In this document: positions 1 through 32,505 of the stretch, piece after piece
Layout: each line of letters begins with the position of its first letter
Position numbering within the stretch: the first letter of the stretch is position 1
Sequence record: OR515477.1
DNA: 64,000 nucleotides
Direction: 5' to 3' (one strand)
Origin: Escherichia phage Es2
Position numbers and translations under genes: made by a program
The notes under the pieces: generated by a model
The model's input: the letters and a program-made list of their open reading frames with translations, nothing else
Database searches by the model: none
What the model was told of the DNA's origin: nothing

Positions 1-23
1 ATAAATTGAACTGGAGAAGCAAC

Positions 24-248
24 ATGACAGAACAAGAATTGAATGAACGTAAGCTGGTAATGCTTCGCTTACTAAATATTTTCTCTGGTATGGACGGTGG
101 AATTGACTTTGTTCATCTACGTTCTTTCGTAGAAGAAGCTGAAGGCGAATCTATCACTAAAATCCTTAAACACATGGGATTACTTTTAGATGCTGCTAAT
201 GTGGCTACTGAATATAAAATAGAAGATCTACCGGAGCGTGTTAAATGA
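24..248 (+). CDS. hypothetical early protein
   Basis: Track ORF 6..248 (begins at TTG); in-frame ATG at 24 has a GGAGA RBS upstream. Confidence 0.5.
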   Translation: MTEQELNERKLVMLRLLNIFSGMDGGIDFVHLRSFVEEAEGESITKILKHMGLLLDAANVATEYKIEDLPERVK

Positions 249-436
249 AACGATTAGTTAGATTTAAGTGTTGTGGTTCCGAGCACATTTTCACACATCT
301 TCGTGAATTTAAAATGTGTGATTGTGGTAAATCAGGCTATGACTCAGGAGATGGGTTCTACACCCGTACTCTAGGGAACTTCAATGATCTAGAATTTGAA
401 GATCTCGAAAAACAAGATAAACCGACCGTTGGCTGA
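245..436 (+). CDS. hypothetical Cys-rich small protein
   Basis: Track ORF; ATGA overlap with upstream ORF; 3' end overlaps predicted tRNA by about 14 nt. Confidence 0.4.
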   Translation: MKRLVRFKCCGSEHIFTHLREFKMCDCGKSGYDSGDGFYTRTLGNFNDLEFEDLEKQDKPTVG

Positions 437-498
437 ATGGCTTAGGCGAAGGATTGCAAATCCTTTTTATGTGAGTTCAAATCTCATGCGGTCGTCCA
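423..498 (+). tRNA. tRNA-Cys (anticodon GCA)
   Basis: Hand-folded: acceptor CGACCGT/GCGGTCG, anticodon stem AAGGA/TCCTT with loop TTGCAAA, T-arm GTGAG-TTCAAAT-CTCAT, encoded CCA. Confidence 0.65.
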
Positions 499-650
499 AT
501 TTGCTGAAAGAATTGTTAAATCAATTCAGGCACGCGTAGGAACACTGTCTCCGTAATTGAAAGATGAGGCACGGTTTGGAGAGGTATGCCGCTACACGCT
601 ACGGTGCTAACTCCGTCTAGGTGAAAATCCTAGTCAGCAATATAAATTTA

Positions 651-733
651 GGGTCGTTAGCCAAGCGGTTTGGCGGTGGACTGTTAATCCATGTCGAAAG
701 ACAACGTAGGTTCGAATCCTACACGGCCCGCCA
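651..733 (+). tRNA. tRNA, anticodon GTT (Asn-decoding) with unusually long variable arm
   Basis: Acceptor GGGTCGT/ACGGCCC, D stem GCCA/TGGC, anticodon loop CTGTTAA, 13-nt variable region, T-arm GTAGG-TTCGAAT-CCTAC, CCA. Confidence 0.6.
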
Positions 734-835
734 AATTCTGTGTAGAGTTAAGTAAACCGGTAGCCAACCAGCTATCATTGCTGATATCGAATTCAGCCAC
801 AGATACCATTTTCATTAATAACTGAGGAAACAAGC

Positions 836-1021
836 ATGTCCAAGAATGTAATTGCACAGCTAGAAGTTCATCGTGATAACACAGCTAATAACATTAAGTG
901 CCGACAAAAAGATATTGAAGCTCGAAAGGCTGATCTTTTAATGAGTATTCGAGAGCTTAATGTACGGAAAGAGTTTCTTAAAGAACTTAATGCAGCTATT
1001 GAAAAACTCAAAGTTGAGTAA
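836..1021 (+). CDS. hypothetical coiled-coil protein
   Basis: Track ORF with GAGGAAA RBS. Confidence 0.55.
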   Translation: MSKNVIAQLEVHRDNTANNIKCRQKDIEARKADLLMSIRELNVRKEFLKELNAAIEKLKVE

Positions 1022-1030
1022 ATAAATTAT

Positions 1031-1107
1031 GCGACCGGGGCTGGCTTGGTAATGGTACTCCCCTGTCACGGGAGGGAATGTGGGTTCAAATCCCATCGGT
1101 CGCGCCA
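1031..1107 (+). tRNA. tRNA-Asp (anticodon GTC)
   Basis: Perfect acceptor GCGACCG/CGGTCGC, anticodon stem CTCCC/GGGAG with loop CTGTCAC, T-loop TTCAAAT, CCA. Confidence 0.8.
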
Positions 1108-1132
1108 AATTAATTTAGTATGAGAATATACT

Positions 1133-1480
1133 ATGCGTAATGCTAAAGAAGAGTTGTTACTTGCCTTAAAAAATACTAATTCTGAAGTTAAATGTATTAA
1201 AATAGAATTCGGGTATTATGGGGATAAAAAAGTTTGGGTATTACCTTTAGGTTATACAGAAAAAGATATTGAGGATTTTCTTAATAATCTAGACTTTAAG
1301 TACGATTCTGGGTATGGTGGGCAATTACTTTATGGTAATGTATGGTTTGCCGACGGAACTTGGCTAGAACGTGGGGAATACGATGGTGCTGAGTGGTGGG
1401 AGTACAAAGCTACCCCGGAAATTCCAGAGGAATGCCGAACAATTAATGGTGAAGTAGATAATACTTTACTATTAAACTAA
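1133..1480 (+). CDS. hypothetical early protein
   Basis: Track ORF, 115 aa. Confidence 0.55.
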   Translation: MRNAKEELLLALKNTNSEVKCIKIEFGYYGDKKVWVLPLGYTEKDIEDFLNNLDFKYDSGYGGQLLYGNVWFADGTWLERGEYDGAEWWEYKATPEIPEECRTINGEVDNTLLLN

Positions 1481-1872
1481 AAGAATTTCAGTGCAGAACA
1501 CGGAGCTAGCAATTCGGAAGTGCTGACTCATGATAAGCTGCCTATGTACTTGCTAAGCGGTCGTGTCCAAGACTCGGACTCTTGCACTGAAAACAATCAA
1601 ACATTCTAGCGTGGTTGATGGGGAAACCAGCTTGGCTAGGGCAGAAGCTCGTTCGATTCGAGTGAAAGAATGGTTCTCGTAAGTCCGCACAAGTGATAGC
1701 AGGTTCGAGTCCTGTCTAGAATGACACTATAAAGTTTACTTATTATGTAGGTTCCGATAGATCGGCGGGTCTATTCTGGCATTTAAGAGAAGTCTCGCAA
1801 ACTTCTTTGTCAGCCGTGGGGTTGGTAGCCTCCAGGTGGCCTACACAATAAGTAAATTTATTAAAAATTCAT

Positions 1873-1901
1873 TTGCTATTTTTCTTAATTATCTGTATAA
1901 T
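1873..1901 (+). promoter_or_regulatory. early-type sigma70 promoter (TTGCTA - 17 bp - TGTATAAT)
   Basis: -35 TTGCTA at 1873, extended -10 TGnTATAAT at 1894-1901, conserved AT-rich leader and GAGAAGG RBS. Confidence 0.7.
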
Positions 1902-1933
1902 ATATTTTATAAAGTGAAGAGAAGGAAAGCAAA

Positions 1934-2083
1934 ATGAAACACAAGATAGCCCAAGTTTTTATGGCATTATGGTGTATGCCAATAGCTATAACAGCATTTA
2001 ATCTAGATACTTTTACTATAGAAGAAAAATGTATCGGATTAGTTAGCGGCTTTAGTATGCTTGGCTTATCTTTGTTGTGGTTG
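1934..2083 (+). CDS. hypothetical 49-aa hydrophobic peptide (below ORF-track size cutoff)
   Basis: Hand translation MKHKIAQVFMALWCMPIAITAFNLDTFTIEEKCIGLVSGFSMLGLSLLWL; directly downstream of promoter and RBS. Confidence 0.5.
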
Positions 2084-2096
2084 AAGAAATAATATT

Positions 2097-2174
2097 CTCC
2101 GTGTAGCTCAGTTTGGCCAGAGCGTTTCGTTTGGGGCGATAGGGTCGGGGGTTCAAATCCTCCCACGGAGACCA
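2097..2174 (+). tRNA. tRNA-Pro (anticodon TGG)
   Basis: Acceptor CTCCGTG/CACGGAG, anticodon loop TTTGGGG, T-loop TTCAAAT, CCA. Confidence 0.65.
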
Positions 2175-2180
2175 AACAAT

Positions 2181-2258
2181 TGCGGGTTAGATCTCTGGTA
2201 GAGATCGCTAGTCTCATAAGCTAGAAAGAGGTAGGTTCGATTCCTGCACCCGCTTCCA
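2181..2258 (+). tRNA. tRNA-Met (anticodon CAT)
   Basis: Anticodon stem CTAGT/GCTAG with loop CTCATAA, T-arm GTAGG-TTCGATT-CCTGC, CCA. Confidence 0.65.
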
Positions 2259-2278
2259 TTTTAATAGAGGATTTCGAA

Positions 2279-2446
2279 ATGAAAGTATTTCGATTAGTAG
2301 TAAGTGACAAACGGTTAGGTAAGAATACATCAAAATCCCTACTCGCTCATTACGGTAAAAATTGGGATGAAGTAATGGCAGAGTTTAGTACTAATCACCC
2401 TTACTTGAAAGTTCACTCTATTAAAGAAGTATATAATGGTTACTAA
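2279..2446 (+). CDS. hypothetical 55-aa protein (below ORF-track size cutoff)
   Basis: Hand translation MKVFRLVVSDKRLGKNTSKSLLAHYGKNWDEVMAEFSTNHPYLKVHSIKEVYNGY; AGAGGA RBS; sits between two tRNAs. Confidence 0.45.
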   Translation: MKVFRLVVSDKRLGKNTSKSLLAHYGKNWDEVMAEFSTNHPYLKVHSIKEVYNGY

Positions 2447-2447
2447 T

Positions 2448-2526
2448 AGATCGCTAGCTCAATAGGTTTAGTAGCATCCGACTTTTAATCGGAAGGTTCT
2501 GGGTTCGAGTCCCAGGCGATCTACCA
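2448..2526 (+). tRNA. tRNA-Lys (anticodon TTT)
   Basis: Perfect acceptor AGATCGC/GCGATCT, anticodon stem TCCGA/TCGGA with loop CTTTTAA, T-arm CTGGG-TTCGAGT-CCCAG, CCA. Confidence 0.75.
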
Positions 2527-2530
2527 AATT

Positions 2531-2604
2531 GCTCGGTTAGTTTAATGGGAGAACCCCGTCTTTACACGGCGGTTGAGATAGTTCAATTCTATCACCGAGT
2601 ACCA
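2531..2604 (+). tRNA. tRNA-Val (anticodon TAC)
   Basis: Acceptor GCTCGGT/ACCGAGT, anticodon stem CCGTC/GGCGG with loop TTTACAC, T-arm GATAG-TTCAATT-CTATC, CCA. Confidence 0.65.
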
Positions 2605-2623
2605 ATTAACTCAAAATAAGGAA

Positions 2624-2983
2624 TTGCAAATGCAATTATCAAGCAAGATTCAAGGTTATTTCGGTCATGTAACAATGGAGTTCGCTATCTCTAAAGGTTG
2701 GGACTTCGAACAAGATTTAGCTGAGTTCTACAAAGATATTGATCTGAACGTACCGTACATGGGACTTTCTACTGGTCAGGAGATCACAGAAGCCGATGTA
2801 TTCAAGGCAAGTCAAGGTGAGGTAACACCTAGTTTTGCCGAGTTCTGGTTAGGCATTACGTTAAAAGAAGATGCACCAGATAGTGGTGTACTAATGTCTA
2901 GTATGCACTCTGGAAGTTCCGATTACCTTTTCATTAGCGATGTTAAGGAAATACAAGAAGTCTGCAAAAATGTACTTGCTTGA
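2624..2983 (+). CDS. hypothetical early protein
   Basis: Track ORF, 119 aa, AAGGAA RBS. Confidence 0.6.
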   Translation: MQMQLSSKIQGYFGHVTMEFAISKGWDFEQDLAEFYKDIDLNVPYMGLSTGQEITEADVFKASQGEVTPSFAEFWLGITLKEDAPDSGVLMSSMHSGSSDYLFISDVKEIQEVCKNVLA

Positions 2984-3004
2984 TGCTTAATTTCTTGTTA
3001 TAAT
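2976..3004 (+). promoter_or_regulatory. early-type sigma70 promoter feeding the tRNA block
   Basis: TTGCTT - 17 bp - TATAAT; leader contains hairpin GATGAGGAGAAATCCTCATC; no ORF follows, tRNAs downstream. Confidence 0.65.
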
Positions 3005-3242
3005 ATTTATATAAATTGATGAGGAGAAATCCTCATCATAGTTCACTAAGGTATTAGCTCGACCTAGGACTGGCTGCCAAAAAGCACGATCCCTACGATT
3101 CGGGAAAAGTTCTAGATTGGTCCACTAGATTCAGCGGCAACTGAATAGTGTATTGGGTTTGCGAGATGACGTAGTTCCTTCCGCTCTAAGCGAAGGTGCT
3201 GTAGTTACGCCGAGCTAATAGCCTTAGTAAACTAAAGAATTT

Positions 3243-3321
3243 GGGGAATGGGTCTGCATGGAGTGGACACCTCGCTTGCACCGAGGACATCAGAACGGTT
3301 CGATTCCGTTATTCTCCACCA
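3243..3321 (+). tRNA. tRNA-Ala (anticodon TGC)
   Basis: Acceptor GGGGAAT/ATTCTCC, anticodon stem CCTCG/CGAGG with loop CTTGCAC, T-arm AACGG-TTCGATT-CCGTT, CCA; 7-nt variable loop. Confidence 0.65.
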
Positions 3322-3326
3322 AATAC

Positions 3327-3403
3327 GCGTGATTGATGGAATGGGCATACATACCGTCCTTAGAAGTCGGGTTTTGAGGGTTCGAATCCCTTGTCACGCA
3401 CCA
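3327..3403 (+). tRNA. tRNA, anticodon TAG (Leu-decoding) with short variable loop
   Basis: Acceptor GCGTGAT/GTCACGC, anticodon loop CTTAGAA with one stem mismatch, T-arm GAGGG-TTCGAAT-CCCTT, CCA; isotype uncertain. Confidence 0.5.
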
Positions 3404-3515
3404 AATTTGATGGTCAGAGTAAATTAAACCTACTATCTCGGTTGAGCTGTTTTAATGGGTTCGAATCCCAGCGGGGCGTAACTGCCTGGTGTGATAGAGG
3501 CATCATCTTATTATT

Positions 3516-3606
3516 GGAAGAGCAAATCGAATTGGCGACGAAAACCGCTTGGAAAGTGGCTGACTGGTAAAACGGCTTGAGAGTTCAAATCTCTCCTCTT
3601 CCGCCA
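3516..3606 (+). tRNA. tRNA-Ser (anticodon GGA), type II
   Basis: Perfect acceptor GGAAGAG/CTCTTCC, anticodon loop TTGGAAA, long variable arm, T-arm GAGAG-TTCAAAT-CTCTC, CCA. Confidence 0.7.
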
Positions 3607-3618
3607 AACAATTTATAT

Positions 3619-3713
3619 GGTAGGTCAATCCAATGGCTGGCGCTGGACTCCGACTTGAAATCGGTTGATCGTAGTGATACGGTGTAAGGGTTCGATCCCC
3701 TTACCTACCTCCA
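3619..3713 (+). tRNA. tRNA-Ser (anticodon TGA), type II
   Basis: Perfect acceptor GGTAGGT/ACCTACC, anticodon loop CTTGAAA, long variable arm, T-arm AAGGG-TTCGATC-CCCTT, CCA. Confidence 0.7.
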
Positions 3714-4079
3714 AATCTTGAAGTATGCCGGAATCGGTAGACGGGGCTGCCTAAAAGGTTTATAGGGAACATCCACTCCCTGCAACATACCTCATAAAGC
3801 GGCTGAGATAAATGGTCTATCTCGTGAAGGTTCAAGTCCTTCTGCTTCTTGATACATCTATGGCTCAAAGTGTAACGGTGCTATTTGATGCTCTTGGTAA
3901 GACTTCCCCGACATGCGTTCGGGAGTAAGCTGCTAAGACTAGAGTAGAAGAGTTTCTGAGAGCCGCCACAATTGAAAATTCGTACTCGTCTTGAGCTGCG
4001 CGCAATAGGAGATAACTTGATTAGTATTCTAGAACATGCTAATTGAGGAAGGTTTCGCTAACCCTGCGAGTTTTCAATT

Positions 4080-4156
4080 GTGGCTATATCATAATTGGTT
4101 AATGATCCTGATTGTGAATCAGGCCTATGTGGATTCGAATTCCACTAGCCACCCCA
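4080..4156 (+). tRNA. tRNA-His (anticodon GTG)
   Basis: Perfect acceptor GTGGCTA/TAGCCAC, anticodon stem CCTGA/TCAGG with loop TTGTGAA, T-arm GTGGA-TTCGAAT-TCCAC, CCA. Confidence 0.8.
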
Positions 4157-4180
4157 AATTAACTTAAATAGGAAATAAAT

Positions 4181-4387
4181 ATGGCTGATTTCTGCAAACA
4201 ATGCTCCATTGATATGTGGGGTAAAGATACTGGTGATCTTTCTGGTTTGATTACAGAAGCTGAAGTTAAAGAAGGCTACGGTGCTGCTGTGATCTGCGAA
4301 GGATGCGGAGTTATTCGAGTAGATCATGAAGGCAAACGTTTAGAAGATCCAAAAAGTATTAAGAAGAAGGTTAGCCAAGTAGGTTAA
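4181..4387 (+). CDS. hypothetical CxxC-CxxC small protein
   Basis: Track ORF 68 aa, AGGAAA RBS; 3' end overlaps next tRNA by about 23 nt. Confidence 0.5.
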   Translation: MADFCKQCSIDMWGKDTGDLSGLITEAEVKEGYGAAVICEGCGVIRVDHEGKRLEDPKSIKKKVSQVG

Positions 4388-4440
4388 GGCTGGGGTCTCT
4401 GAAATCCTGATCAGTGGTTCGAATCCACTACCTTCTGCCA
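4365..4440 (+). tRNA. tRNA-Gln (anticodon CTG)
   Basis: Perfect acceptor AGAAGGT/ACCTTCT, anticodon loop CTCTGAA, T-arm AGTGG-TTCGAAT-CCACT, CCA. Confidence 0.65.
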
Positions 4441-4446
4441 AACAAT

Positions 4447-4524
4447 TGGGGATTAGCTTAGCTTGGCCTAAAGCTTCGGCCTTTGAAGTCGAGATCATTG
4501 GTTCAAATCCAATATCCCCTGCCA
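4447..4524 (+). tRNA. tRNA-Gln (anticodon TTG)
   Basis: Acceptor (T)GGGGAT/ATCCCCT, anticodon stem TCGGC/GTCGA with loop CTTTGAA, T-arm ATTGG-TTCAAAT-CCAAT, CCA. Confidence 0.65.
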
Positions 4525-4535
4525 GCTAAATTAAT

Positions 4536-4610
4536 GCGTGATTAGTTCAGTGGCTAGAATAACTGGCTTCCAACCAGTAGACACGAGTTCGACTCTCGTA
4601 TCCCGCACCA
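4536..4610 (+). tRNA. tRNA-Gly (anticodon TCC)
   Basis: Acceptor GCGTGAT/ATCCCGC (one mismatch), anticodon stem ACTGG/CCAGT with loop CTTCCAA, T-arm ACGAG-TTCGACT-CTCGT, CCA. Confidence 0.65.
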
Positions 4611-4624
4611 AATAAGGAAACGTT

Positions 4625-4846
4625 ATGCACGTTTTTGAGTTTCGTAATAAAAATACTGATAAGCGAGTTATCATTATTGGAGAAACATACCGAGCATATG
4701 AACAAACTGACGGCTCTGTTATCTTGAATGATGAGAAAGGAGGTTTTAGCTTTTATCCAGAAGAACCTTATGAAGAGTTTCGTACTAAGTTTCTTTTACC
4801 AGACTGGCTAGCAGTAGCCGAGCAACGAGAATCCGAAGATGGCTGA
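4625..4846 (+). CDS. hypothetical early protein
   Basis: Track ORF 73 aa, AAGGAAA RBS. Confidence 0.55.
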   Translation: MHVFEFRNKNTDKRVIIIGETYRAYEQTDGSVILNDEKGGFSFYPEEPYEEFRTKFLLPDWLAVAEQRESEDG

Positions 4847-5003
4847 TAACCTAAAATTAAGGGTCGACAAACAAAAGAAATACATTGAGGTTGAATTAGG
4901 CGAAGAACGATTAAAGCTAACTTTCGAGTTTCTTCAGCAGTTGGCTATGACAGTTATGACTGATAAGTCTCCTGTTATTGAAAAAGAAATCCCGTTGAAA
5001 TAA
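4839..5003 (+). CDS. hypothetical 54-aa protein (below ORF-track size cutoff)
   Basis: Hand translation MADNLKLRVDKQKKYIEVELGEERLKLTFEFLQQLAMTVMTDKSPVIEKEIPLK; start overlaps upstream stop (ATGGCTGA). Confidence 0.45.
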   Translation: MADNLKLRVDKQKKYIEVELGEERLKLTFEFLQQLAMTVMTDKSPVIEKEIPLK

Positions 5004-5013
5004 CGGGATCATC

Positions 5014-5088
5014 GCTCCTAAAGCATTGCTGGCGATGCAGTTGCCTTGTAAGCATCTGAACCGGGTTCGATTCCTGGTGGGAGCACCA
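5014..5088 (+). tRNA. tRNA-Thr (anticodon TGT)
   Basis: Acceptor GCTCCTA/TGGGAGC, D stem GCAT/ATGC, anticodon loop CTTGTAA, T-arm CCGGG-TTCGATT-CCTGG, CCA. Confidence 0.65.
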
Positions 5089-5103
5089 AATTTAAAAATT
5101 CAT

Positions 5104-5132
5104 TTGCTTTCTCTCTTATTTATTGTTATAAT
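5104..5132 (+). promoter_or_regulatory. early-type sigma70 promoter
   Basis: TTGCTT - 17 bp - TATAAT, then conserved leader ATAAATTAATGAGAGG. Confidence 0.7.
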
Positions 5133-5162
5133 ATTCATATAAATTAATGAGAGGGAAGCCAA

Positions 5163-5456
5163 ATGAAACGTTATCTTTCTGTTGTGTTCCAAACTGGTGG
5201 TCAACGCTATACTTACGAATTTCCTGGCTCTTGGAAGATCAAAGAAGGTGATCAAGTAGTAGTGTTAACACCGCGTGAGGGTTTTAAGGTAGTAACGGTT
5301 AAGCAAGTATTTCCAAAAGAGCGTGAACCAGCTAAAGGCATTCGCTATAAGATGATTCATGGTGTAGTTCGTCAAGTACCACGAGCGGAAGTCGAAATCA
5401 AAGTAGATAAAGATGGTAAACTTAAATATACCTCTTGCTTAGACGAGTTGCTATAA
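5163..5456 (+). CDS. hypothetical early protein
   Basis: Track ORF 97 aa, promoter and RBS upstream. Confidence 0.6.
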   Translation: MKRYLSVVFQTGGQRYTYEFPGSWKIKEGDQVVVLTPREGFKVVTVKQVFPKEREPAKGIRYKMIHGVVRQVPRAEVEIKVDKDGKLKYTSCLDELL

Positions 5457-5662
5457 TGAGGATTACTTTTACAGAAAAGATCATGAGTAATGGTGTTATG
5501 ATCATTACCGCATGGGATGGTAATCAGTGGTGTAGTGTTTCAGGTATTAAGCCTGAAGAACAAACACTAGATAATATCTCAAAGATTAAGCGAAGAATGA
5601 CAGAACGTGCACGACTTCCAGGTGCACCTAGAAATGGCAAACGTTCTGCTGCAAAATGTTAA
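5456..5662 (+). CDS. hypothetical early protein
   Basis: Track ORF 5435..5662 trimmed to in-frame ATG at 5456 that overlaps upstream stop (TAATG). Confidence 0.5.
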   Translation: MRITFTEKIMSNGVMIITAWDGNQWCSVSGIKPEEQTLDNISKIKRRMTERARLPGAPRNGKRSAAKC

Positions 5663-5663
5663 T

Positions 5664-5740
5664 GCTTCGGTAGCTTAGCGATCTAAAGCACTCGGCTGAT
5701 AACCGAGAGATCGGGGGTTTAAATCCCTCCCGGAGTACCA
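5664..5740 (+). tRNA. tRNA-Ile (anticodon GAT)
   Basis: Perfect anticodon stem CTCGG/CCGAG with loop CTGATAA, T-loop TTTAAAT, CCA. Confidence 0.65.
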
Positions 5741-5836
5741 AATTTAGGAATTAAGACTATGCGTCCAGGAAAGTTTAAAAAAGCTAATTGGTCTAAAGAG
5801 TATAAAGAATACTTACTTAGTCTAGTAAAACATAAT

Positions 5837-5912
5837 AGTTAGTTGGCAGAGTGGTTATGCACCTCCTTCATACGGAGCGACTACAGTGGTTCAAATCCAC
5901 TACTAACTACCA
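5837..5912 (+). tRNA. tRNA-Met (anticodon CAT), second copy; initiator/elongator/Ile2 not resolved
   Basis: Perfect acceptor AGTTAGT/ACTAACT, anticodon loop TTCATAC, T-arm AGTGG-TTCAAAT-CCACT, CCA. Confidence 0.65.
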
Positions 5913-5949
5913 TTAAAAGAGCTAGAGATAGCTAACTTTAGGAGCAGCT

Positions 5950-6144
5950 ATGTTAACAATTAAAATAATGTCAGCCAAGAATGGGGAACAGATTCATACA
6001 GGCAAAAGTGTAAGCTTTAATCCTAGAAATAAAAGACTGGCTATAGTTGGAGTAGACCAAGCCATCTTTTTAAAAGAAGATGAAGTAGCATATGTCATGA
6101 ACCAAACTGGTAAGACAGTTTCCGTATACTATGGAAAAGTATAA
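5950..6144 (+). CDS. hypothetical early protein
   Basis: Track ORF 64 aa, AGGAG RBS. Confidence 0.55.
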   Translation: MLTIKIMSAKNGEQIHTGKSVSFNPRNKRLAIVGVDQAIFLKEDEVAYVMNQTGKTVSVYYGKV

Positions 6145-6186
6145 AGAATAAATAGCTGAGCCAAATTCTAACATCGGGGAGATCTA

Positions 6187-6555
6187 ATGAAAGCATATCA
6201 AAACCTTAAATCTGGCGTAATTAATATTGTTCATAATAATCAGATCATTCAGCTATATTCCGATAATGGTGAACTTAAACAGAAAGTTCTAGTTGAAGAT
6301 CTAGAAGGTATCACACCTCACTTTGACCCTGAGGCCTTTCGCATTGTAGATGTGGAAGTGGTTCCTCAAATCGAAGGTGGTCAGCACCTAAATGTCAATG
6401 TATTAAGCCGTGATCAGCTTTTGGATGCGCAGAAACATCCTGAAAAATACCCTCAATTAACTATCCGTGTTTCAGGGTACGCTGTTCGATTTAATGCACT
6501 GACTCGTGAACAACAGAACGACGTTATTAGTCGTACATTTACTCAGGCGATGTAA
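6187..6555 (+). CDS. hypothetical early protein
   Basis: Track ORF 122 aa. Confidence 0.6.
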
Positions 6556-6636
6556 TGGGGTTTGGGTACGATTTCTCCCAGCTACGCAAGGTAGTCGAGC
6601 AAACTCCGTTTATCTCCCAAGTTTTAGGAGAAATGT

Positions 6637-6951
6637 GTGGATCGAGCATTAAGACGTCATCACAGGCAACGTGTAAAGAACAACCGCAAGAAGTACTGGA
6701 CAGTCTTTCCACATGAAGAAAGCCCTAAGCGGTTAGGTATTATCACTACTACTCCTTGCATCTGTTCTTGTTGGATGTGTGGGAACCCTCGCAAGTACTA
6801 TAAGAATAGTAAAGCAGGCATGAAAACCTCGGAGATCAGGAAAATGGAAGCGATGATTATGGGCATCTCAAATGATGAATTTGATGGCTTTGTAGGATTC
6901 GGAGAAGGAATCAGCTCAGGCTGTTTAGAAGATGAACGCCCCGACCTGTAA
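6637..6951 (+). CDS. hypothetical Cys-rich protein
   Basis: Track ORF 104 aa, CICSCWMCG motif. Confidence 0.5.
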   Translation: MDRALRRHHRQRVKNNRKKYWTVFPHEESPKRLGIITTTPCICSCWMCGNPRKYYKNSKAGMKTSEIRKMEAMIMGISNDEFDGFVGFGEGISSGCLEDERPDL

Positions 6952-6961
6952 TTAATAACAA

Positions 6962-6996
6962 ACCCCAGCTATTGAATAAGTAGTCTGGGGTTTTTC
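6962..6996 (+). terminator. intrinsic terminator
   Basis: Hairpin CCCCAG...CTGGGG followed by TTTTT. Confidence 0.6.
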
Positions 6997-7072
6997 TGTA
7001 TAAAGGTACATAATATATGTATAATAAAATTCATCCACATTAGGTTAATTTAAAAGACTTAATGGAGGTAAT

Positions 7073-7420
7073 ATGAGCCGTACTTATCGTAGACAATCTG
7101 GTGATCAGTGGTGGAAGTCTAAAGAACAATTCTCTCAAGAATATTCTTTCCTCAAAGAAAATGGCTACTGGATTCGTGTTATTTATGCCAAATCCTGGGA
7201 CGACATCAAAAAAGAAATGAAGGAAGCAACCATTCGTAATGAGAAAAAGGATGGTTATAACTGGAATTCCATTAGTAAGAATGTTAAGTGGCATTCTAAT
7301 AAAATGGTTCGTCAAGGGAATCGTCAAGAACTCCACCGCGTGATGAAAGATCCAGAAAATTACGACTATAATCGCGACCATGACATGCGTAAGCGTGGAT
7401 TATGGTGGTGCTATGACTAA
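7073..7420 (+). CDS. hypothetical early protein
   Basis: Track ORF 115 aa, GGAGG RBS. Confidence 0.6.
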   Translation: MSRTYRRQSGDQWWKSKEQFSQEYSFLKENGYWIRVIYAKSWDDIKKEMKEATIRNEKKDGYNWNSISKNVKWHSNKMVRQGNRQELHRVMKDPENYDYNRDHDMRKRGLWWCYD

Positions 7421-7437
7421 ATTCTGAAATAATTCAT

Positions 7438-7466
7438 TTGCTAAACCTCTCTTTTCTTGCTATAAT
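7438..7466 (+). promoter_or_regulatory. early-type sigma70 promoter
   Basis: TTGCTA - 17 bp - TATAAT, conserved leader TTTATAAATTGATAAGAGAGG. Confidence 0.7.
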
Positions 7467-7496
7467 ATATTTATAAATTGATAAGAGAGGTTTGAA

Positions 7497-7778
7497 ATGA
7501 AAAATCGCCTAGACTGTGCCATTCATGTTCTTGAACATGATGTTACGGGAACCTGTATGTCTTACCACGAAGCAGGTCGTTTAATTAAAGAACGCGTGGC
7601 AGATGTGTGCGGATTGAAGATTACTGCTGAGGAAGCTGATGATCTTTTAGGTCAAGCACTGGAGAAAACCGAAATGTTCCTCTGCGATTCTTGTTCTTGG
7701 TGGTGTGAAGCTCACGAACGTTCTTTCAACGATTATGATGTATGTCGTGATTGTAGTGGGGAGGATAAAGATGAATAA
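7497..7778 (+). CDS. hypothetical Cys-rich protein
   Basis: Track ORF 93 aa; CDSCSWWC and CRDCSG motifs. Confidence 0.55.
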   Translation: MKNRLDCAIHVLEHDVTGTCMSYHEAGRLIKERVADVCGLKITAEEADDLLGQALEKTEMFLCDSCSWWCEAHERSFNDYDVCRDCSGEDKDE

Positions 7779-8067
7779 GTTTATTATTGCACTGATGATC
7801 TCCGCAGTTAGTTTCGGTTCTCTGGCGTCTACCAAAGTTTCTATGAAAAATGGTAATGTTAAAGTCCAACAGAACGGTATTATTACTGAGTATGGTAAAG
7901 TTCGTGATGTTAAAGAACGTAATGGTAAGGTAGAAATCTATACTAATAAAAACTTCTCTACTCCAGCCGTTACTATTAGCAAACGCGGTGAAATAACCAC
8001 TCAACGTACTAATAGCTCCAGTTCTTTTACTTGTCGTTATGATTGCGACTTTGAAGGGGAAGAGTAA
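7771..8067 (+). CDS. hypothetical secreted protein (signal peptide)
   Basis: Track ORF 7705..8067 trimmed to ATG at 7771 with GAGGA RBS; N-terminus MNKFIIALMISAVSFGSLAS. Confidence 0.55.
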   Translation: MNKFIIALMISAVSFGSLASTKVSMKNGNVKVQQNGIITEYGKVRDVKERNGKVEIYTNKNFSTPAVTISKRGEITTQRTNSSSSFTCRYDCDFEGEE

Positions 8068-8068
8068 C

Positions 8069-8377
8069 ATGGAAAAGAACGTGAAAAAACTAAACATCAA
8101 CAGCACAGTGCAGATTCCAGCAACTAAGGATGTTTTAACATTCCTACGGAGTGAAAACGCTCAGTTTTGGCATGATCATGTTGTAAAGAACGGTAGTACT
8201 CCAGATGTAGTTTACTTTGCTAAAAAACGTATCGAAGAATATAAAGATCCAGAGATTAAAGATGGGATGATAACTATGCAATTGTGGGTAGCCATGAATA
8301 CGTTTGGACCTACTATGAGTCTAGGAGTTACTCCACTGTTTACTAATATTCTAATTAATGAAAAGGATCTGAAATGA
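8069..8377 (+). CDS. hypothetical early protein
   Basis: Track ORF 8039..8377 trimmed to ATG at 8069 with GAAGAG RBS. Confidence 0.5.
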   Translation: MEKNVKKLNINSTVQIPATKDVLTFLRSENAQFWHDHVVKNGSTPDVVYFAKKRIEEYKDPEIKDGMITMQLWVAMNTFGPTMSLGVTPLFTNILINEKDLK

Positions 8378-8658
8378 TTATCTCTCCATTTGCTCTTTGG
8401 TTCGTCATCGGATCTATAGTAGCTATTTACAGCTTGGTTGATGATCTGTATATTTCTAAGAATAAAGATGTAATATTATACATTATACATAAAACTCGAC
8501 CGTTAGATCTGCCTCCTCTTGATGATAAAACATTACTGAGATGTGCTAGATCTATGATATTTATTGTGGATATTCTTCTAGGCCCAACATCTGTGTTTTT
8601 CTTTTATAGAAAGACTCGTAATATGAAAAAATTTAAAGCTGAAATGCAGAATACCTAA
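8374..8658 (+). CDS. hypothetical membrane protein
   Basis: Track ORF 94 aa; two hydrophobic segments; ATGA overlap. Confidence 0.55.
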   Translation: MIISPFALWFVIGSIVAIYSLVDDLYISKNKDVILYIIHKTRPLDLPPLDDKTLLRCARSMIFIVDILLGPTSVFFFYRKTRNMKKFKAEMQNT

Positions 8659-8768
8659 AGAACTCGCGTAGGACCGAGTTGCGTCACCTGCAACTGTTAC
8701 GGATAAGGGAGTCGTGCCCCTTAGTGCGGTAAGTGGTGAGGTGGCTGCTAGCCCTAACTGGAGATAAT

Positions 8769-9113
8769 ATGACTATATTACTAATTCTTGTTACAACTTG
8801 GTTTTTAATCGGTGCTGGATATGCGATAGCTATTATTAGACATTTGGATGAACATTCTGCTGAATGGTTTGTTAAGTATCTACGTATTGATGGTCAAGAA
8901 CAGAAGTTTAAAGACGAAAAGCAGAAAAAAGCAGTAAATAATATGACAGCCAAAGAATGCTTGTTCTACATGCGTATTGTAGGGTTCTTTGGACTATTAG
9001 TTGCTGGCCCAATTGGTTCTACCATTGCCCCATATAAAGAAACAGTTGCTGACATCAAATTGTGGAGAAATGCAGGGGTACTGCACAAAGCTAGAAAAAC
9101 TAATATTACATAA
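8769..9113 (+). CDS. hypothetical membrane protein
   Basis: Track ORF 8733..9113 trimmed to ATG at 8769 with GGAGA RBS; hydrophobic N-terminus. Confidence 0.55.
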   Translation: MTILLILVTTWFLIGAGYAIAIIRHLDEHSAEWFVKYLRIDGQEQKFKDEKQKKAVNNMTAKECLFYMRIVGFFGLLVAGPIGSTIAPYKETVADIKLWRNAGVLHKARKTNIT

Positions 9114-9156
9114 GATTGACACTAAGTCAGCTTACTAGCAAAAGCAAATAATGACA

Positions 9157-9193
9157 AAGCCCAGCCTGCACTTTTGCGACTGGGCTATTTTTA
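9157..9193 (+). terminator. intrinsic terminator
   Basis: Hairpin GCCCAG...CTGGGC followed by T-run. Confidence 0.6.
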
Positions 9194-9207
9194 TAATAAA
9201 ATTTTAG

Positions 9208-9236
9208 TTGCTTAGATGCCCAAACTTTTGTATAAT
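9208..9236 (+). promoter_or_regulatory. early-type sigma70 promoter
   Basis: TTGCTT - 17 bp - TGTATAAT, RBS AAGAGGA. Confidence 0.7.
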
Positions 9237-9267
9237 ATGTTTATAGATTGAGGCAAGAGGATTAAAT

Positions 9268-29127: not shown

Positions 29128-29225
29128 TCTAGTGTTAACTTTATATTCCCCTGAAATATGGGGAATATAACGATTAACATTAGTTAATCATAATCCCTTA
29201 AATTAAACTAATAGGAGTTTATATC

Positions 29226-29633
29226 ATGACTAACGCAAAAACCGCAAAATTCGCATGGAATGAAGAAAACACCCAAAAAGCTGTTACCATGTACCAGCAG
29301 TTAATCAACGAAAACGGTTTAGATTTCGCAAATAGTGACGGGCTGAAAGAGATTGCAAAAGCAGTAGGCGCGGCTTCTCCCGTATCCGTTCGCTCAAAAT
29401 TGACCAGTGCAAAAGCCTACCAGAAAAGCGATAAGCCGCGTAAAGTTGGCGGCGGCAGTTCTGTACGCAAAGCGCATTATGTGCGTGTTATTGCTAAACA
29501 TGCCATTGATTCCGGCATTATCAAAGACGCTGACGATCTGGCATCACTGGAAAGTGCAAAACTTGAAACGCTGGACGCGGTAGCGCAATTGCTAGGCGTT
29601 GCCGATGAAGTGAAACAAGCCGCAGGCGAATAA
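29226..29633 (+). CDS. A2: A2-like pre-early protein (putative DNA-binding)
   Basis: 135 aa; position immediately upstream of the A1-like gene; assignment by synteny and size only. Confidence 0.5.
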   Translation: MTNAKTAKFAWNEENTQKAVTMYQQLINENGLDFANSDGLKEIAKAVGAASPVSVRSKLTSAKAYQKSDKPRKVGGGSSVRKAHYVRVIAKHAIDSGIIKDADDLASLESAKLETLDAVAQLLGVADEVKQAAGE

Positions 29634-29722
29634 TAGTTATACATTGCCCTTCCTAGTGGGAGGGCAATAATATAACTGTTTAGCGATAGTTATTTTCTTC
29701 CCTTAAATCAGGAGTTTTAAAA

Positions 29723-29920
29723 ATGATTTTCTTTCCTACTGAATCATTAATTTTAGGCTTGTTTATTATGGCGGCCTCATTATTGTTCGCTTATTTTCAA
29801 AATGATTTAGATTCATATTATTTTAAACGTAAATCTAAGTTAGCAAAGCGTTTAGGTCTGATTTGTTTTATTGCCGCCGTTGCTTGTGGTGTTAGTTCTA
29901 GCCTTATGCCTTTAAATTAA
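29723..29920 (+). CDS. hypothetical membrane protein
   Basis: Track ORF 65 aa, two hydrophobic segments. Confidence 0.5.
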   Translation: MIFFPTESLILGLFIMAASLLFAYFQNDLDSYYFKRKSKLAKRLGLICFIAAVACGVSSSLMPLN

Positions 29921-30016
29921 TGTTGCAAATTATAACGCCTATTATTCAAGGCGTTATATTTGGCAATATTTGCCAATAACAAACGTTTTTTAATCCCTTT
30001 AATGGAGTTTATTACT

Positions 30017-31681
30017 ATGATTATTTCCGCAGAAAAACAAACCGTTATCCTGAAAATGGCCGCTGACTTTAATTTCTATGGTAAACGTCTGCGCGCCACT
30101 AAACTGGAGGTCTGCGACGATATATCAAAAGCGGTCTACGATACAACAAAACACTCGACCGCCATTTGTGATTGGCTGGAAGCAAATAAACCAGTTAAAC
30201 CAAAAGCTGCAAAAGTAGCAAAAGCTATTAAAAACGATGAGCGCCCCGAAGCGGCTGGGATCGTTTCTAGCACGGTTGAACAGTGGGAAGTAAAACAAGG
30301 CAAACGCTTTATTATTACGTCGATTCAGAATAATACTTTCCCGCATAAAAACTTTTTGGCCTCGCTTGAACAGTATGCTAAATACATCGGCGCTGATTTG
30401 CTTGTTTCTAAGTATATTTATAATAAAAACGGCTTCCAAAATGGTGAAGGTGCGGATGGAATCAAATATGATTCCGCGTTCGATAAGTATATTTGCAGCA
30501 AAAACGTGTTTTTAAACAACCGCCGTTTTGCTTTCATGGCTGAAATTAACGTTTTGCCTACCGCAGATTATCCGCTTTCTGGATTCGCTGAAACTGCAAC
30601 GGCGCTTAATCTTGAAGGTCTGGCAATTGGTCACGCTAAAATCACCGCCGAAAGCGTGCCAGCTTTAAAAGGTGAAGTAGTACGCCGCATGTACTCAACC
30701 GGAACGGCAACGCTAAAAAACTACATTCAGCAGAAAGCAGGGCAAAAAGCGGAAGCGCTGCATAACTTCGGTGCGCTGATTGTTGAGTTCGACGAAGACG
30801 GTGAGTTTTTTGTACGCCAGCTTGAAACAATGGACGAAAGCGGGGTGTTTTATGATCTGAATGTTTGCGCTACTCCCGCAGGATGCTATGAAACATCGGG
30901 GCATGTTTTAGGTTTACAATATGGCGACATCCACGCAGAAAAATTAGATGATGATTGTGCCGTTGCGTCATGGGCTGGCGAAAATAGCTTGCTTGATATT
31001 CTTAAACCAAAATATCAGTTTATCCATGACGTTCACGATTTTACATCTCGCAATCATCATAATCGTGCGTCCGGTGTATTCCTAGCGAAACAGTACGCCG
31101 CCGGACGTGATAAAGTTCTGGATGATCTTATCGATACGGGGCGCGTGCTGGAATCAATGGAACGTGATTTTAGTCAAACGATCATTGTTGAATCGAATCA
31201 CGATTTGGCGCTATCCCGTTGGCTGGATGATCGTAATGCTAACATTAAAGACGATCCAGCAAACGCCGAACTATATCACCGCCTGAATGCTGCAATTTAC
31301 GCGGCAATCGGTGAACACGACGAAACGTTTAACGTGTTAGATTATGCGCTGCGCAAGGTTGCAGGTTGCGAGTTTAACGCCATTTTCCTAACAACTGACC
31401 AATCATTTAAAATTGCAGGCATCGAGTGTGGCGTACACGGTCACAACGGCATTAACGGAAGCCGTGGCAATCCTAAACAGTTTAAGAAATTGGGCAAACT
31501 GAACACGGGGCATACGCATACGGCAAGCATTTACGGCGGGGTATACACCGCTGGCGTGGCTGGTAGTCTGGACATGGGTTACAACGTTGGCGCGTCAAGC
31601 TGGACGCAAACGCATTTAATTACCTATGCAAACGGTCAGCGCACTTTGATTGACTTTAAAAACGGTAAATTCTTTGCGTAA
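30017..31681 (+). CDS. A1: A1-like pre-early protein with metallophosphatase motifs
   Basis: Track ORF 29960..31681 trimmed to ATG at 30017 with GGAG RBS (554 aa); ESNHD and GHTHT phosphoesterase-like motifs. Confidence 0.7.
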   Translation: MIISAEKQTVILKMAADFNFYGKRLRATKLEVCDDISKAVYDTTKHSTAICDWLEANKPVKPKAAKVAKAIKNDERPEAAGIVSSTVEQWEVKQGKRFIITSIQNNTFPHKNFLASLEQYAKYIGADLLVSKYIYNKNGFQNGEGADGIKYDSAFDKYICSKNVFLNNRRFAFMAEINVLPTADYPLSGFAETATALNLEGLAIGHAKITAESVPALKGEVVRRMYSTGTATLKNYIQQKAGQKAEALHNFGALIVEFDEDGEFFVRQLETMDESGVFYDLNVCATPAGCYETSGHVLGLQYGDIHAEKLDDDCAVASWAGENSLLDILKPKYQFIHDVHDFTSRNHHNRASGVFLAKQYAAGRDKVLDDLIDTGRVLESMERDFSQTIIVESNHDLALSRWLDDRNANIKDDPANAELYHRLNAAIYAAIGEHDETFNVLDYALRKVAGCEFNAIFLTTDQSFKIAGIECGVHGHNGINGSRGNPKQFKKLGKLNTGHTHTASIYGGVYTAGVAGSLDMGYNVGASSWTQTHLITYANGQRTLIDFKNGKFFA

Positions 31682-31735
31682 TTAAATTATTACCCTAGCG
31701 GCTTGAAATACAGCCGCTATTATAGGAGTCAAAAA

Positions 31736-31993
31736 ATGAAAGTTACATTACCCAAAACATTAGACGAAAAAGCGTTTATTTCCCCCGATGAAATGGAATC
31801 CGATAAAGTTTACAGCTTCGGGCCTATCCTAGCCGCCAAAACTAATACTGATGGAATTATTACAGTCGATTATCGTGATAATGATATTGTTCCCTTTGAC
31901 GATGATGACGCTTTTTACGAGTGGTTAAGCGATAATAATTTACCCGTAAGTGGTGAATTAACGCCGTATCAGATGCAAATCATTATCAAATAA
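31736..31993 (+). CDS. hypothetical pre-early protein
   Basis: Track ORF 31703..31993 trimmed to ATG at 31736 with AGGAG RBS. Confidence 0.55.
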   Translation: MKVTLPKTLDEKAFISPDEMESDKVYSFGPILAAKTNTDGIITVDYRDNDIVPFDDDDAFYEWLSDNNLPVSGELTPYQMQIIIK

Positions 31994-32032
31994 TTTAAAT
32001 CCCCTTATTAAACTAATTGGAGTTTTATAACT

Positions 32033-32425
32033 ATGAAAAAGCAAAATATCCCATTCGACCGCGCTCAGTCCTCAATTGTTCTGGTTTATTCCAACGGCGA
32101 ACGTTACCACGTCGAGGCGGGGCACGTTATTGATGACCTATTAGATTTCAATGACGCTTTGCAGGTTACTACCTTTGCATATACGCAGGGCAAACTAACC
32201 AGCCATATTAAAGCAAAAGGCGTTTATGTTGACACGGTGAAACAAGAAACGATTATCATCGACGCCGTAAAATCCGGCCTAGCCTTTGCAGTTGTCGCGC
32301 CTTGCCTCGCTTGCCTTGATGATCAATTGATTAGTGCAAAGGTCTACACATGTGCGGGGATTCGTTCTAGCGTATCCGGTGAGGATGTTAGTTTTATCGC
32401 TGATGCGTTGGCTTATGGTCTTTAA
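32033..32425 (+). CDS. hypothetical pre-early protein
   Basis: Track ORF 130 aa, GGAG RBS. Confidence 0.6.
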   Translation: MKKQNIPFDRAQSSIVLVYSNGERYHVEAGHVIDDLLDFNDALQVTTFAYTQGKLTSHIKAKGVYVDTVKQETIIIDAVKSGLAFAVVAPCLACLDDQLISAKVYTCAGIRSSVSGEDVSFIADALAYGL

Positions 32426-32505
32426 TAGTTGATTTATTATTGCCCGCTTATAAATAGCGGGTAATGCTGAATTAATCTAATCCCTTAAATGGAGAACGTA
32501 ACAAA

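Follow-up and report, generated by a model that had tools for sequence, protein, structure and literature searches.

Structured tRNA-like RNAs between the tRNA genes of the T5-like Escherichia phage Es2: a homolog of RNA1 and a probable, unannotated spacer RNA

In the 64,000-nucleotide (nt) stretch of Escherichia phage Es2 that was analyzed (sequence record OR515477.1, called the window here; all positions are those of the window), two intervals between tRNA genes carry tRNA-like modules, the first being an unannotated spacer RNA that we refer to as Element 1 and the second a homolog of the phage T5 RNA known as RNA1. The source phage is T5-like (Tequintavirus); 1.3 kb around the two intervals is 99.9% identical to Escherichia phage IME178, and the region has matches in more than 800 records of T5-group phages (family Demerecviridae). 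ARAGORN, run over the whole window, placed 16 tRNA genes between 423 and 5912, every one on the + strand, and 15 of these were also called by Rfam at the gathering threshold. Both elements sit within a single polycistronic tRNA operon, whose transcription start is placed near 3010 by homology to the T5 promoter P13b. The two elements and the genes that lie between them are as follows.

3404-3515, + strand: Element 1, an unannotated tRNA-like spacer RNA of 112 nt, between the CCA of tRNA(UAG) and the start of tRNA-Ser(GGA) at 3516
3516-3606, + strand: tRNA-Ser(GGA), class II, CCA encoded; called by ARAGORN with -ps80 and annotated in T5_ev212, BF23 and phage 5
3619-3713, + strand: tRNA-Ser(UGA), class II, CCA encoded; called by ARAGORN with -ps and -ps80, with a tRNAscan-SE annotation in AKFV33
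3717-3861, + strand: RNA1 homolog, its ends set by homology to the T5 rna1 annotation

The order of the operon is RNA 2H, tRNA-Ala, tRNA(UAG), Element 1, tRNA-Ser(GGA), tRNA-Ser(UGA), RNA1, RNA I, RNA III and tRNA-His, and that of the T5 RefSeq record is tRNA-Ala, tRNA-Leu1, hegC, tRNA-Ser2, tRNA-Ser1, open reading frame (ORF) T5.063, rna1, rnaI, rnaIII and tRNA-His. The gene immediately upstream of Element 1, tRNA(UAG), occupies 3327-3403, with its CCA at 3401-3403. The two class-II tRNA-Ser genes had been overlooked in a preliminary description of this DNA; neither was called by default ARAGORN or by the Rfam tRNA model, and ARAGORN needs -ps or -ps80 to find them.

The preliminary description had reported a canonical T-arm, TGGG-TTCGAAT-CCCA, and further downstream a tRNA-Leu-like D-arm followed by a second T-arm, GAAGG-TTCAAGT-CCTTC. 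All three motifs were confirmed on the + strand. For the first T-arm, however, the position is 3456-3470, some 10 nt further downstream than the 3445-3461 first given; the D-arm motif (CCGGAATCGGTAGACGG) lies at 3728-3744 and the second T-arm at 3826-3842, so that the distance between the latter two, which had been given as about 110 nt, is 98 nt from start to start, or 81 nt between them. Both T-arms have the G53-C61 pair and the UUCRANY loop of a canonical T-arm. The window contains 14 copies of the T-loop pattern GGTTCRANTCC, compared with 0.21 expected from shuffles, and all of these copies are on the + strand within 709-5898; 11 of them fall inside tRNAs called by ARAGORN and the other three are at 1702, 3458 and 3829. 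Default ARAGORN and Rfam recovered no canonical tRNA at either element, in keeping with the preliminary description, and Rfam searched at E-values up to 10 over 2600-4200 gave no tRNA at either of them and chance-level matches nearby only. A match to the Rfam model tmRNA_permuted (14.1 bits, E 3.2) was set aside as chance-level and driven by the T-arm.

On sequence comparison, the interval 3717-3861 is the homolog of RNA1 of T5, BF23 and phage 5, with 144 of 144 nt of T5 rna1 covered by blastn at 85% identity. The records of T5 (gene rna1, T5s03, 144 nt), BF23 and phage 5 all label it "tRNA-like (stable) RNA with unknown functions", and its setting, with a tRNA-Ser gene upstream and RNA I, RNA III and tRNA-His downstream, is common to these three phages and the window. 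A total of 492 phage records contain RNA1, and almost none of them annotates it.

The minimum free energy (MFE) fold of RNA1 is a class-II cloverleaf of -43.5 kcal/mol (z = -2.6), and none of 200 shuffles folded as well. The fold was examined in an alignment of 28 distinct homologs from Tequintavirus, Epseptimavirus, Sugarlandvirus and an uncultivated relative (L022), in which 95.9% of cells were paired and 13 of 36 pairs had changed on both sides. The covariation score was 0.271, compared with 0.119 for shuffles (0 of 500 reached the observed value) and at most 0.071 for slid controls. RNAalifold independently recovered the RNA1 helices together with two leader-trailer pairs, 3716-3717 / 3851-3852. 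The parts of the fold, with helix lengths in base pairs (bp), are the following.

3720-3725 / 3843-3848, + strand: acceptor stem, 6 bp, GAAGUA/UGCUUC; 4 of 7 acceptor pairs changed on both sides
3728-3744, + strand: D-arm, stem CCG/CGG with loop GAAUCGGUAGA, invariant in the 28 sequences
3746-3803, + strand: extended "anticodon" arm, with eight pairs changed on both sides over its three stems
3746-3750 / 3799-3803, + strand: anticodon stem, 5 bp, with covariation
3756-3759 / 3789-3792, + strand: stem a
3763-3768 / 3777-3782, + strand: stem b
3769-3776, + strand: apical loop ACAUCCAC, 8 nt, identical in 27 of the 28 distinct sequences
3805-3823, + strand: long variable arm GAGAUA / AAUGGUC / UAUCUC, 6 bp; 99.4% of cells paired, one compensatory pair
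3826-3842, + strand: T-arm GAAGG / UUCAAGU / CCUUC, all cells paired

The acceptor and the anticodon stem in this list, each with compensatory changes, contradict the preliminary description, which had stated that the D-arm and T-arm of 3714-3856 stood there without an acceptor and without a foldable anticodon arm; its heading, which announced tRNA arms without matching acceptor stems, is likewise wrong for RNA1. The acceptor is closed by a U.U mismatch at 3719:3849 (position 1:72), and the D-arm aligns with that of the class-II tRNA-Leu1 of T5. The one exception to the apical loop sequence is T5 itself, which has ACAUCCGC. A target for this loop was sought in the window, where its complement GTGGATGT has five sites (the loop site included) compared with 1.2 expected, a number that 1 of 100 shuffles equals, and the candidate was rejected.

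The relationship of RNA1 to tRNA was apparent in two ways. Only with its intron option (-i) did ARAGORN parse RNA1, making a tRNA of 3719-3850 by setting aside 41 inserted nt at position 37/38. When RNA1 was aligned by MAFFT with phage class-II tRNA-Leu(UAG), the gap fell exactly in the anticodon loop, and RNA1 can be regarded as a tRNA-Leu derivative because of this alignment. A structured segment of 48 nt takes the place of the 7-nt anticodon loop; among phages, the would-be position 33 alternates between U and G, and AAA, AAU and AAC all occur as the "anticodon". At its 3′ end, the acceptor is followed by UGAU, with a discriminator U and without CCA. The insert is far from the size of a group I intron (41 nt only, compared with about 200 nt or more), and Rfam gave no intron match for it.

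Element 1 was found in 251 phage records from several genera, with identities of 74-77% for the copies in Sugarlandvirus and Erwinia phage KEY. Its start is always directly after the CCA of the upstream tRNA, while the identity of that tRNA varies from phage to phage and may be the class-I tRNA(UAG), a class-II tRNA-Leu, a tRNA-Ala or others. No annotation of Element 1 was present in the phage records examined, including the detailed tRNA-region records of BF23 and phage 5. In T5, the HNH gene hegC exactly replaces it. In Erwinia phage KEY, two hypothetical coding sequences (key_098 and key_099, within 1011-1474 of that genome) overlap the tRNA-Ala and the Element 1 copy, and at least their starts are probably mis-annotated.

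A covariance model (R1) built from only the four most distant copies (Sugarlandvirus, Erwinia KEY and L022) matched the window at 3404-3512 with 88.9 bits (E 1.4e-21) and found one copy per genome. A search of metagenomes with the pattern of T-arm, hairpin and GGUGU returned T5-like contigs only. The same pattern had a sole match in 185,579 bacterial and archaeal genomes, in Herbiconiux, which was attributed to chance (8.4 bits with model R1). The 3′ motif of Element 1, when used alone to find relatives, gave mostly chance matches in the coding DNA of viral contigs. The possibility that Element 1 is a paralog of T5 RNA2, RNA3 or RNA IV was also rejected, as model R1 gives a single copy per genome and none in T5.

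For the structure of Element 1, nine variants were aligned manually as input to RNAalifold; MAFFT had misplaced a gap of 5 nt, where the copies truly differ by a 6-nt insert, which broke the helix P2. A model-based alignment of 17 distinct sequences (A7) was then scored: 99.5% of its cells are paired, and in 8 of 22 pairs both partners have changed. Its covariation score of 0.287 compares with 0.153 in shuffles, and slid controls reach 0.069 at most. The features of the element are listed here.

3408-3412 / 3501-3505, + strand: P1, UGAUG/CAUCA, from RNAalifold; all A7 cells paired, with one U-A to U.G change
3429-3437 / 3493-3500, + strand: P2, CCU-A-CUAUC / GAUAG-AGG with a bulged A; eight pairs, all cells paired
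3456-3470, + strand: T-arm UGGG / UUCGAAU / CCCA; 2 of 4 pairs compensatory (U-A to C-G and G-C to A-U)
3474-3487, + strand: P4, the closed hairpin GGGCG-UAAC-UGCCU that follows the T-arm directly; 2 of 5 pairs changed on both sides
3488-3492, + strand: invariant GGUGU, followed by the 3′ strand of P2 and the 3′ strand of P1

Within P2, four pairs show changes in both partners and two in one partner. P2, the T-arm and P4 also appeared unaided when the Klebsiella-phage and L022 copies were each folded singly by MFE, and these single-sequence folds together with RNAalifold suggest a possible extension of P4 by G3471.U3490 and C3472-G3489. Directly behind the CCA, the first 9 nt of the element (AAUUUGAUG) do not vary. 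The 3′ side of the P1/P2 stem is followed by UCUUAUUAUU; there is no 7-bp acceptor with CCA and no anticodon arm, and ARAGORN gave no parse of Element 1 in any mode. The modelled topology corresponds to a circularly permuted tRNA that has no D-arm: P1 and P2 close a junction, and in it lie a short variable hairpin, the T-arm and P4. Two further pairings were tried and rejected. A different register of P1, GAUGGU/AUCAUC, had three mismatched sequences, compared with none for the RNAalifold register, and a pseudoknot CAGUG/CACUG is full in Klebsiella, Erwinia KEY and L022 and reduced to 3 bp in Tequintavirus, with changes that are not compensatory.

Some of the pairs in the two structures are possible on one strand only. 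In RNA1, a U.G pair at 37:90 is present in 28 of 28 sequences, and in Element 1 a G.U pair at 76:82 is present in 12 of 17, and both can pair on the + strand only, indicating that the two elements act as RNA in the operon sense and not as a DNA signal. No ORF longer than 59 amino acids was found over the region. A terminator scan gave a weak terminator-like match at the T-arm of RNA1 only, and none for Element 1. RNA1 and Element 1 are under structural selection in Tequintavirus, Epseptimavirus, Sugarlandvirus and an Erwinia phage. Neither is able to decode, because both lack an anticodon loop and a CCA end.

Taken together, we consider it likely that both elements are selected, structured, tRNA-shaped non-coding RNAs of the T5-like tRNA operon, which agrees with the second of two suggestions in the preliminary description, that of non-canonical tRNA-like RNAs, in one case as the RNA1 homolog (3717-3861) and in the other as a conserved structured RNA with a canonical T-arm (3404-3515). 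RNA1 was already known, and what is new for it is a covariation-backed model, an invariant loop and the breadth of its conservation. In the library searched, we found no paper on the function of T5 RNA1 or on any RNA in the tRNA-Leu/tRNA-Ser spacer.

Several observations weigh against this interpretation. The absence of Element 1 from T5, taken with the viability of T5-123, in which a deletion of 29191-32442 removes the rna1 region (PMC11464382), means that neither RNA is essential on laboratory hosts. The stability of RNA1 is taken solely from the GenBank notes for T5, and the complement of its apical loop shows no convincing enrichment in the window. Folded singly, Element 1 does no better than its shuffles (z = -0.06 to -0.34); the MFE structure of the window copy is not the covarying one, which costs 2.1 kcal/mol more. 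The covariation in Element 1 comes from only about five lineages, the A7 alignment was fitted to the model and its pair counts are thereby biased toward the structure, and the register of P1 is ambiguous.

Of the other explanations, the one that survives best makes Element 1 no more than a spacer for processing or insulation, which would aid RNase P, RNase E or exonucleases and then be degraded. Its location would suit this function, given that Element 1 abuts the upstream CCA, ends 3-10 nt before tRNA-Ser in Tequintavirus and Epseptimavirus, and begins with the 9 invariant nucleotides described above; in addition, it can be replaced by a protein-coding gene, as in T5, and it is not listed among the stable RNAs in the tRNA-region annotations of BF23 and phage 5. 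However, a canonical T-loop and three covarying helices exceed the needs of a spacer, the other tRNA pairs of the operon are only 4-7 nt apart, and the lists of stable RNAs may derive from T5, which lacks Element 1. We therefore consider a mere spacer unlikely.

The preliminary description had also suggested decayed or rearranged tRNA genes, that is, pseudogenes that are free of selection and kept by recent common ancestry only. Genuine tRNA modules are indeed present in both elements (the canonical T-loop in both and the Leu-like D-arm in RNA1), neither element is essential, and the T5 tRNA region is a mosaic that is rearranged by HNH homing-endonuclease genes (PMC10644984). Yet compensatory substitutions hold the helices together between genera, among copies of 75-88% identity with variable junctions, and both elements contain the G.U pairs that form on the + strand only; this leaves the pseudogene reading unsupported, because unconstrained pseudogenes would show neither compensatory changes nor such pairs. 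The insertion in RNA1 is moreover structured and covarying, with a nearly invariant 8-nt apical loop, and RNA1 of T5 is annotated as a stable RNA. We regard decay as very unlikely for either element.

A DNA-level role for Element 1, as the target of a homing endonuclease or as a recombination or nick site, is more doubtful still, even though hegC occupies exactly its position in T5 and HNH genes drive the mosaicism of the region, since a site bound by protein would conserve sequence and not compensatory pairing, the G.U pairs of the covarying helices become A/C mismatches on the other strand, and the T-loop is oriented in the operon sense. Finally, that RNA1 is a real intron-containing tRNA from which 41 nt are removed to give a decoding product ("tRNA-Phe(AAA)" or an ancestral Leu tRNA) is scarcely credible: the intron called by ARAGORN -i is at the canonical 37/38 and the RNA1 body makes a good class-II tRNA, but its anticodon loop is not conserved, it has no CCA, a discriminator U, a U.U mismatch at 1:72 and a leader that pairs with the trailer, a self-splicing group I intron would need a longer insertion, the protein tRNA-splicing endonuclease is not known from bacteria, and the T5 annotation gives the full 144-nt RNA as the stable species.

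If the two elements are indeed selected, tRNA-shaped RNAs, a route to their present form and a mode of action can be proposed. RNA1 probably descends from a class-II tRNA-Leu gene whose anticodon arm, through a 41-nt insertion in the loop, became a long arm of three helices with ACAUCCAC at its tip. Both RNAs would be released from the precursor by the enzymes that process the neighboring tRNAs, with RNase P cutting where the following tRNA begins and 3′ trimming acting at the CCA of the preceding one. Their tRNA-like T-loop elbow would allow them to be handled and bound by tRNA-recognizing proteins, and they may thus serve as tRNA mimics (binders, decoys or scaffolds) rather than as adaptors in translation.

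Past work provides a setting in which such mimics could act. T5-type phages carry about 20 tRNAs, and the tRNA-Lys of T5 counters PARIS (PMC11464382); the tRNA-Tyr of T5 counters retron Eco7, according to a citation within the same paper. Phage tRNA-Thr genes, mainly of phages other than T5 (T4, Bas32, Bas33 and HK446), counter OLD (preprint 10.64898/2026.07.10.737580). A putative role for RNA1 and Element 1 as mimics in the same conflict with tRNA-cleaving defense systems is plausible. A specific form of this idea, which we offer tentatively, is that both RNAs bind a host tRNA-recognizing factor and titrate or mis-direct it in a conflict over tRNAs. The factor could be a defense tRNase or sensor, a tRNA-repair or surveillance system, a synthetase or a modification enzyme; RNA1 could then act as a tRNA-Leu-shaped scaffold that displays the 8-nt ACAUCCAC loop in place of an anticodon, and Element 1 as a permuted tRNA without a D-arm. 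Were this so, the two RNAs would complement the nuclease-resistant tRNAs that T5 uses against PARIS and retron Eco7.

The tRNA-like RNAs of these operons are given as "stable RNA with unknown functions" in T5-type records and are ignored in most others. What is gained here are models at the level of base pairs, an invariant loop and a covariance model with which Element 1 can be annotated. If the RNAs are true tRNA mimics in counter-defense or translation control, they would represent a new layer of the tRNA conflict between phage and host; otherwise, they remain a well-defined gap in annotation.

The remainder of the region contains further homologs of T5 stable RNAs, each assigned by homology to its T5 counterpart.

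736-808: rna3 homolog, tRNA-like
1602-1726: rna2 homolog, tRNA-like, with a T-loop at 1702-1712
1745-1847: rnaIV homolog
3052-3223: rna2H homolog
3862-3968: rnaI homolog, with an acceptor-like stem and a GCCA end
3973-4078: rnaIII homolog

All six are absent from Rfam and left unannotated in most phage records. Upstream of RNA 2H, a 9-bp hairpin, TGATGAGGA-GAAA-TCCTCATCA, lies at 3017-3038, just downstream of the T5 P13b-type promoter (cttgctt...tataat) at about 2977-3012. A small ORF at 4182-4388, between tRNA-His and tRNA-Gln and thus inside the tRNA operon, is the T5.062 homolog; the CxxC...CxxC motifs in its translation (MADFCKQCSID...VICEGCGV...) suggest a possible zinc ribbon.

Some of the tRNA genes next to the two elements are themselves unusual. 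The gene called tRNA-Leu(UAG) at 3327-3403 is a 77-nt class-I form without the long variable arm, and T5 has the 85-nt class-II tRNA-Leu1 at the same position. The record of Yersinia phage phiR2-01 labels a feature at this spot, matched by position and not by sequence, as "tRNA-Pseudo-TAG", and the BF23 record calls a CUA-anticodon version of this tRNA an effective amber suppressor. The assignment of tRNA(UAG) to Leu is therefore provisional. Both tRNA-Ser genes have sub-threshold matches to the Rfam tRNA-Sec model, that of tRNA-Ser(UGA) scoring 37.6 bits, and tRNA-Ser(UGA) diverges strongly from T5 tRNA-Ser1 and has an unusual D-arm. Compared with T5, the window is without hegC, which has Element 1 in its place, and without T5.063 between tRNA-Ser1 and rna1 (3714-3716), and the tRNA-Leu allele and both tRNA-Ser alleles differ. 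The tRNA region is thus a mosaic, probably shaped by homing endonucleases.

Among known RNAs from other systems, the closest in arrangement to Element 1 is YrlA, a Y RNA of bacteria whose tRNA-like module is circularly permuted (Chen et al. 2014, PMC4201824; structure preprint 10.1101/312249). The order of modules is the same in both, with an end stem, a variable region, a T-arm with a UUCGAAU-type loop, a closed acceptor-like hairpin right behind it and a short linker that leads back to the stem; the size is also similar, at about 100-110 nt, and neither has a free CCA end. The terminal stem of Element 1 (P1 and P2) is present and covarying; in YrlA, the stem formed by the two ends bears the motif for Ro60 binding. 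In contrast, the D stem-loop of YrlA is lacking in Element 1, which has 5 nt, the invariant GGUGU, in that place, and the sequence GNCGAAN0-1G conserved in YrlA (Chen et al., PMC4201824) is absent from Element 1 when its sequence is read. No ORF of 150 amino acids or more, as would be required for a gene the size of Ro60 (rsr, TROVE), was found in 1-9267, and Rfam gave no match for Element 1. The resemblance to YrlA is therefore topological only, and Element 1 is not a member of that family.

Among tRNAs, RNA1 has its nearest likeness in class-II tRNA-Leu, with which it has in common the D-arm, the long variable hairpin and the T-arm, and the extra 41 nt are at the same place as the introns at 37/38 of archaeal and eukaryotic tRNAs. 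Unlike both tRNA-Leu and intron-containing tRNAs, RNA1 has neither a conserved anticodon loop nor a CCA, its discriminator is U its acceptor consists of 6 bp and a mismatch, and the full-length RNA is its annotated product. The window copy has the same fold as T5 RNA1, from which it differs by compensatory changes. In sequence type, the window goes with BF23, phage 5 and IME178 and not with T5, and it lacks the small ORF T5.063 that stands between tRNA-Ser1 and rna1 in the T5 genome.

The species 1 and species 2 RNAs of T4 (rnaC and rnaD) are small stable RNAs that are co-transcribed and co-processed with phage tRNAs. T4 belongs to a different phage family, and its RNAs are likened to RNA1 and Element 1 by situation and not by sequence. 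The most direct comparison for Element 1 is with RNA2, RNA3, RNA I, RNA III, RNA IV and RNA 2H of T5, which are likewise structured RNAs of 70-170 nt between tRNA genes and which also carry tRNA modules, RNA2 having a canonical T-arm and RNA I ending in GCCA. The T5 stable RNAs all have homologs in the window and none of them resembles Element 1, for which model R1 gives one match per genome, and Element 1 is best filed as a new, so far unannotated member of the class of stable, tRNA-like RNAs in the T5 tRNA region.

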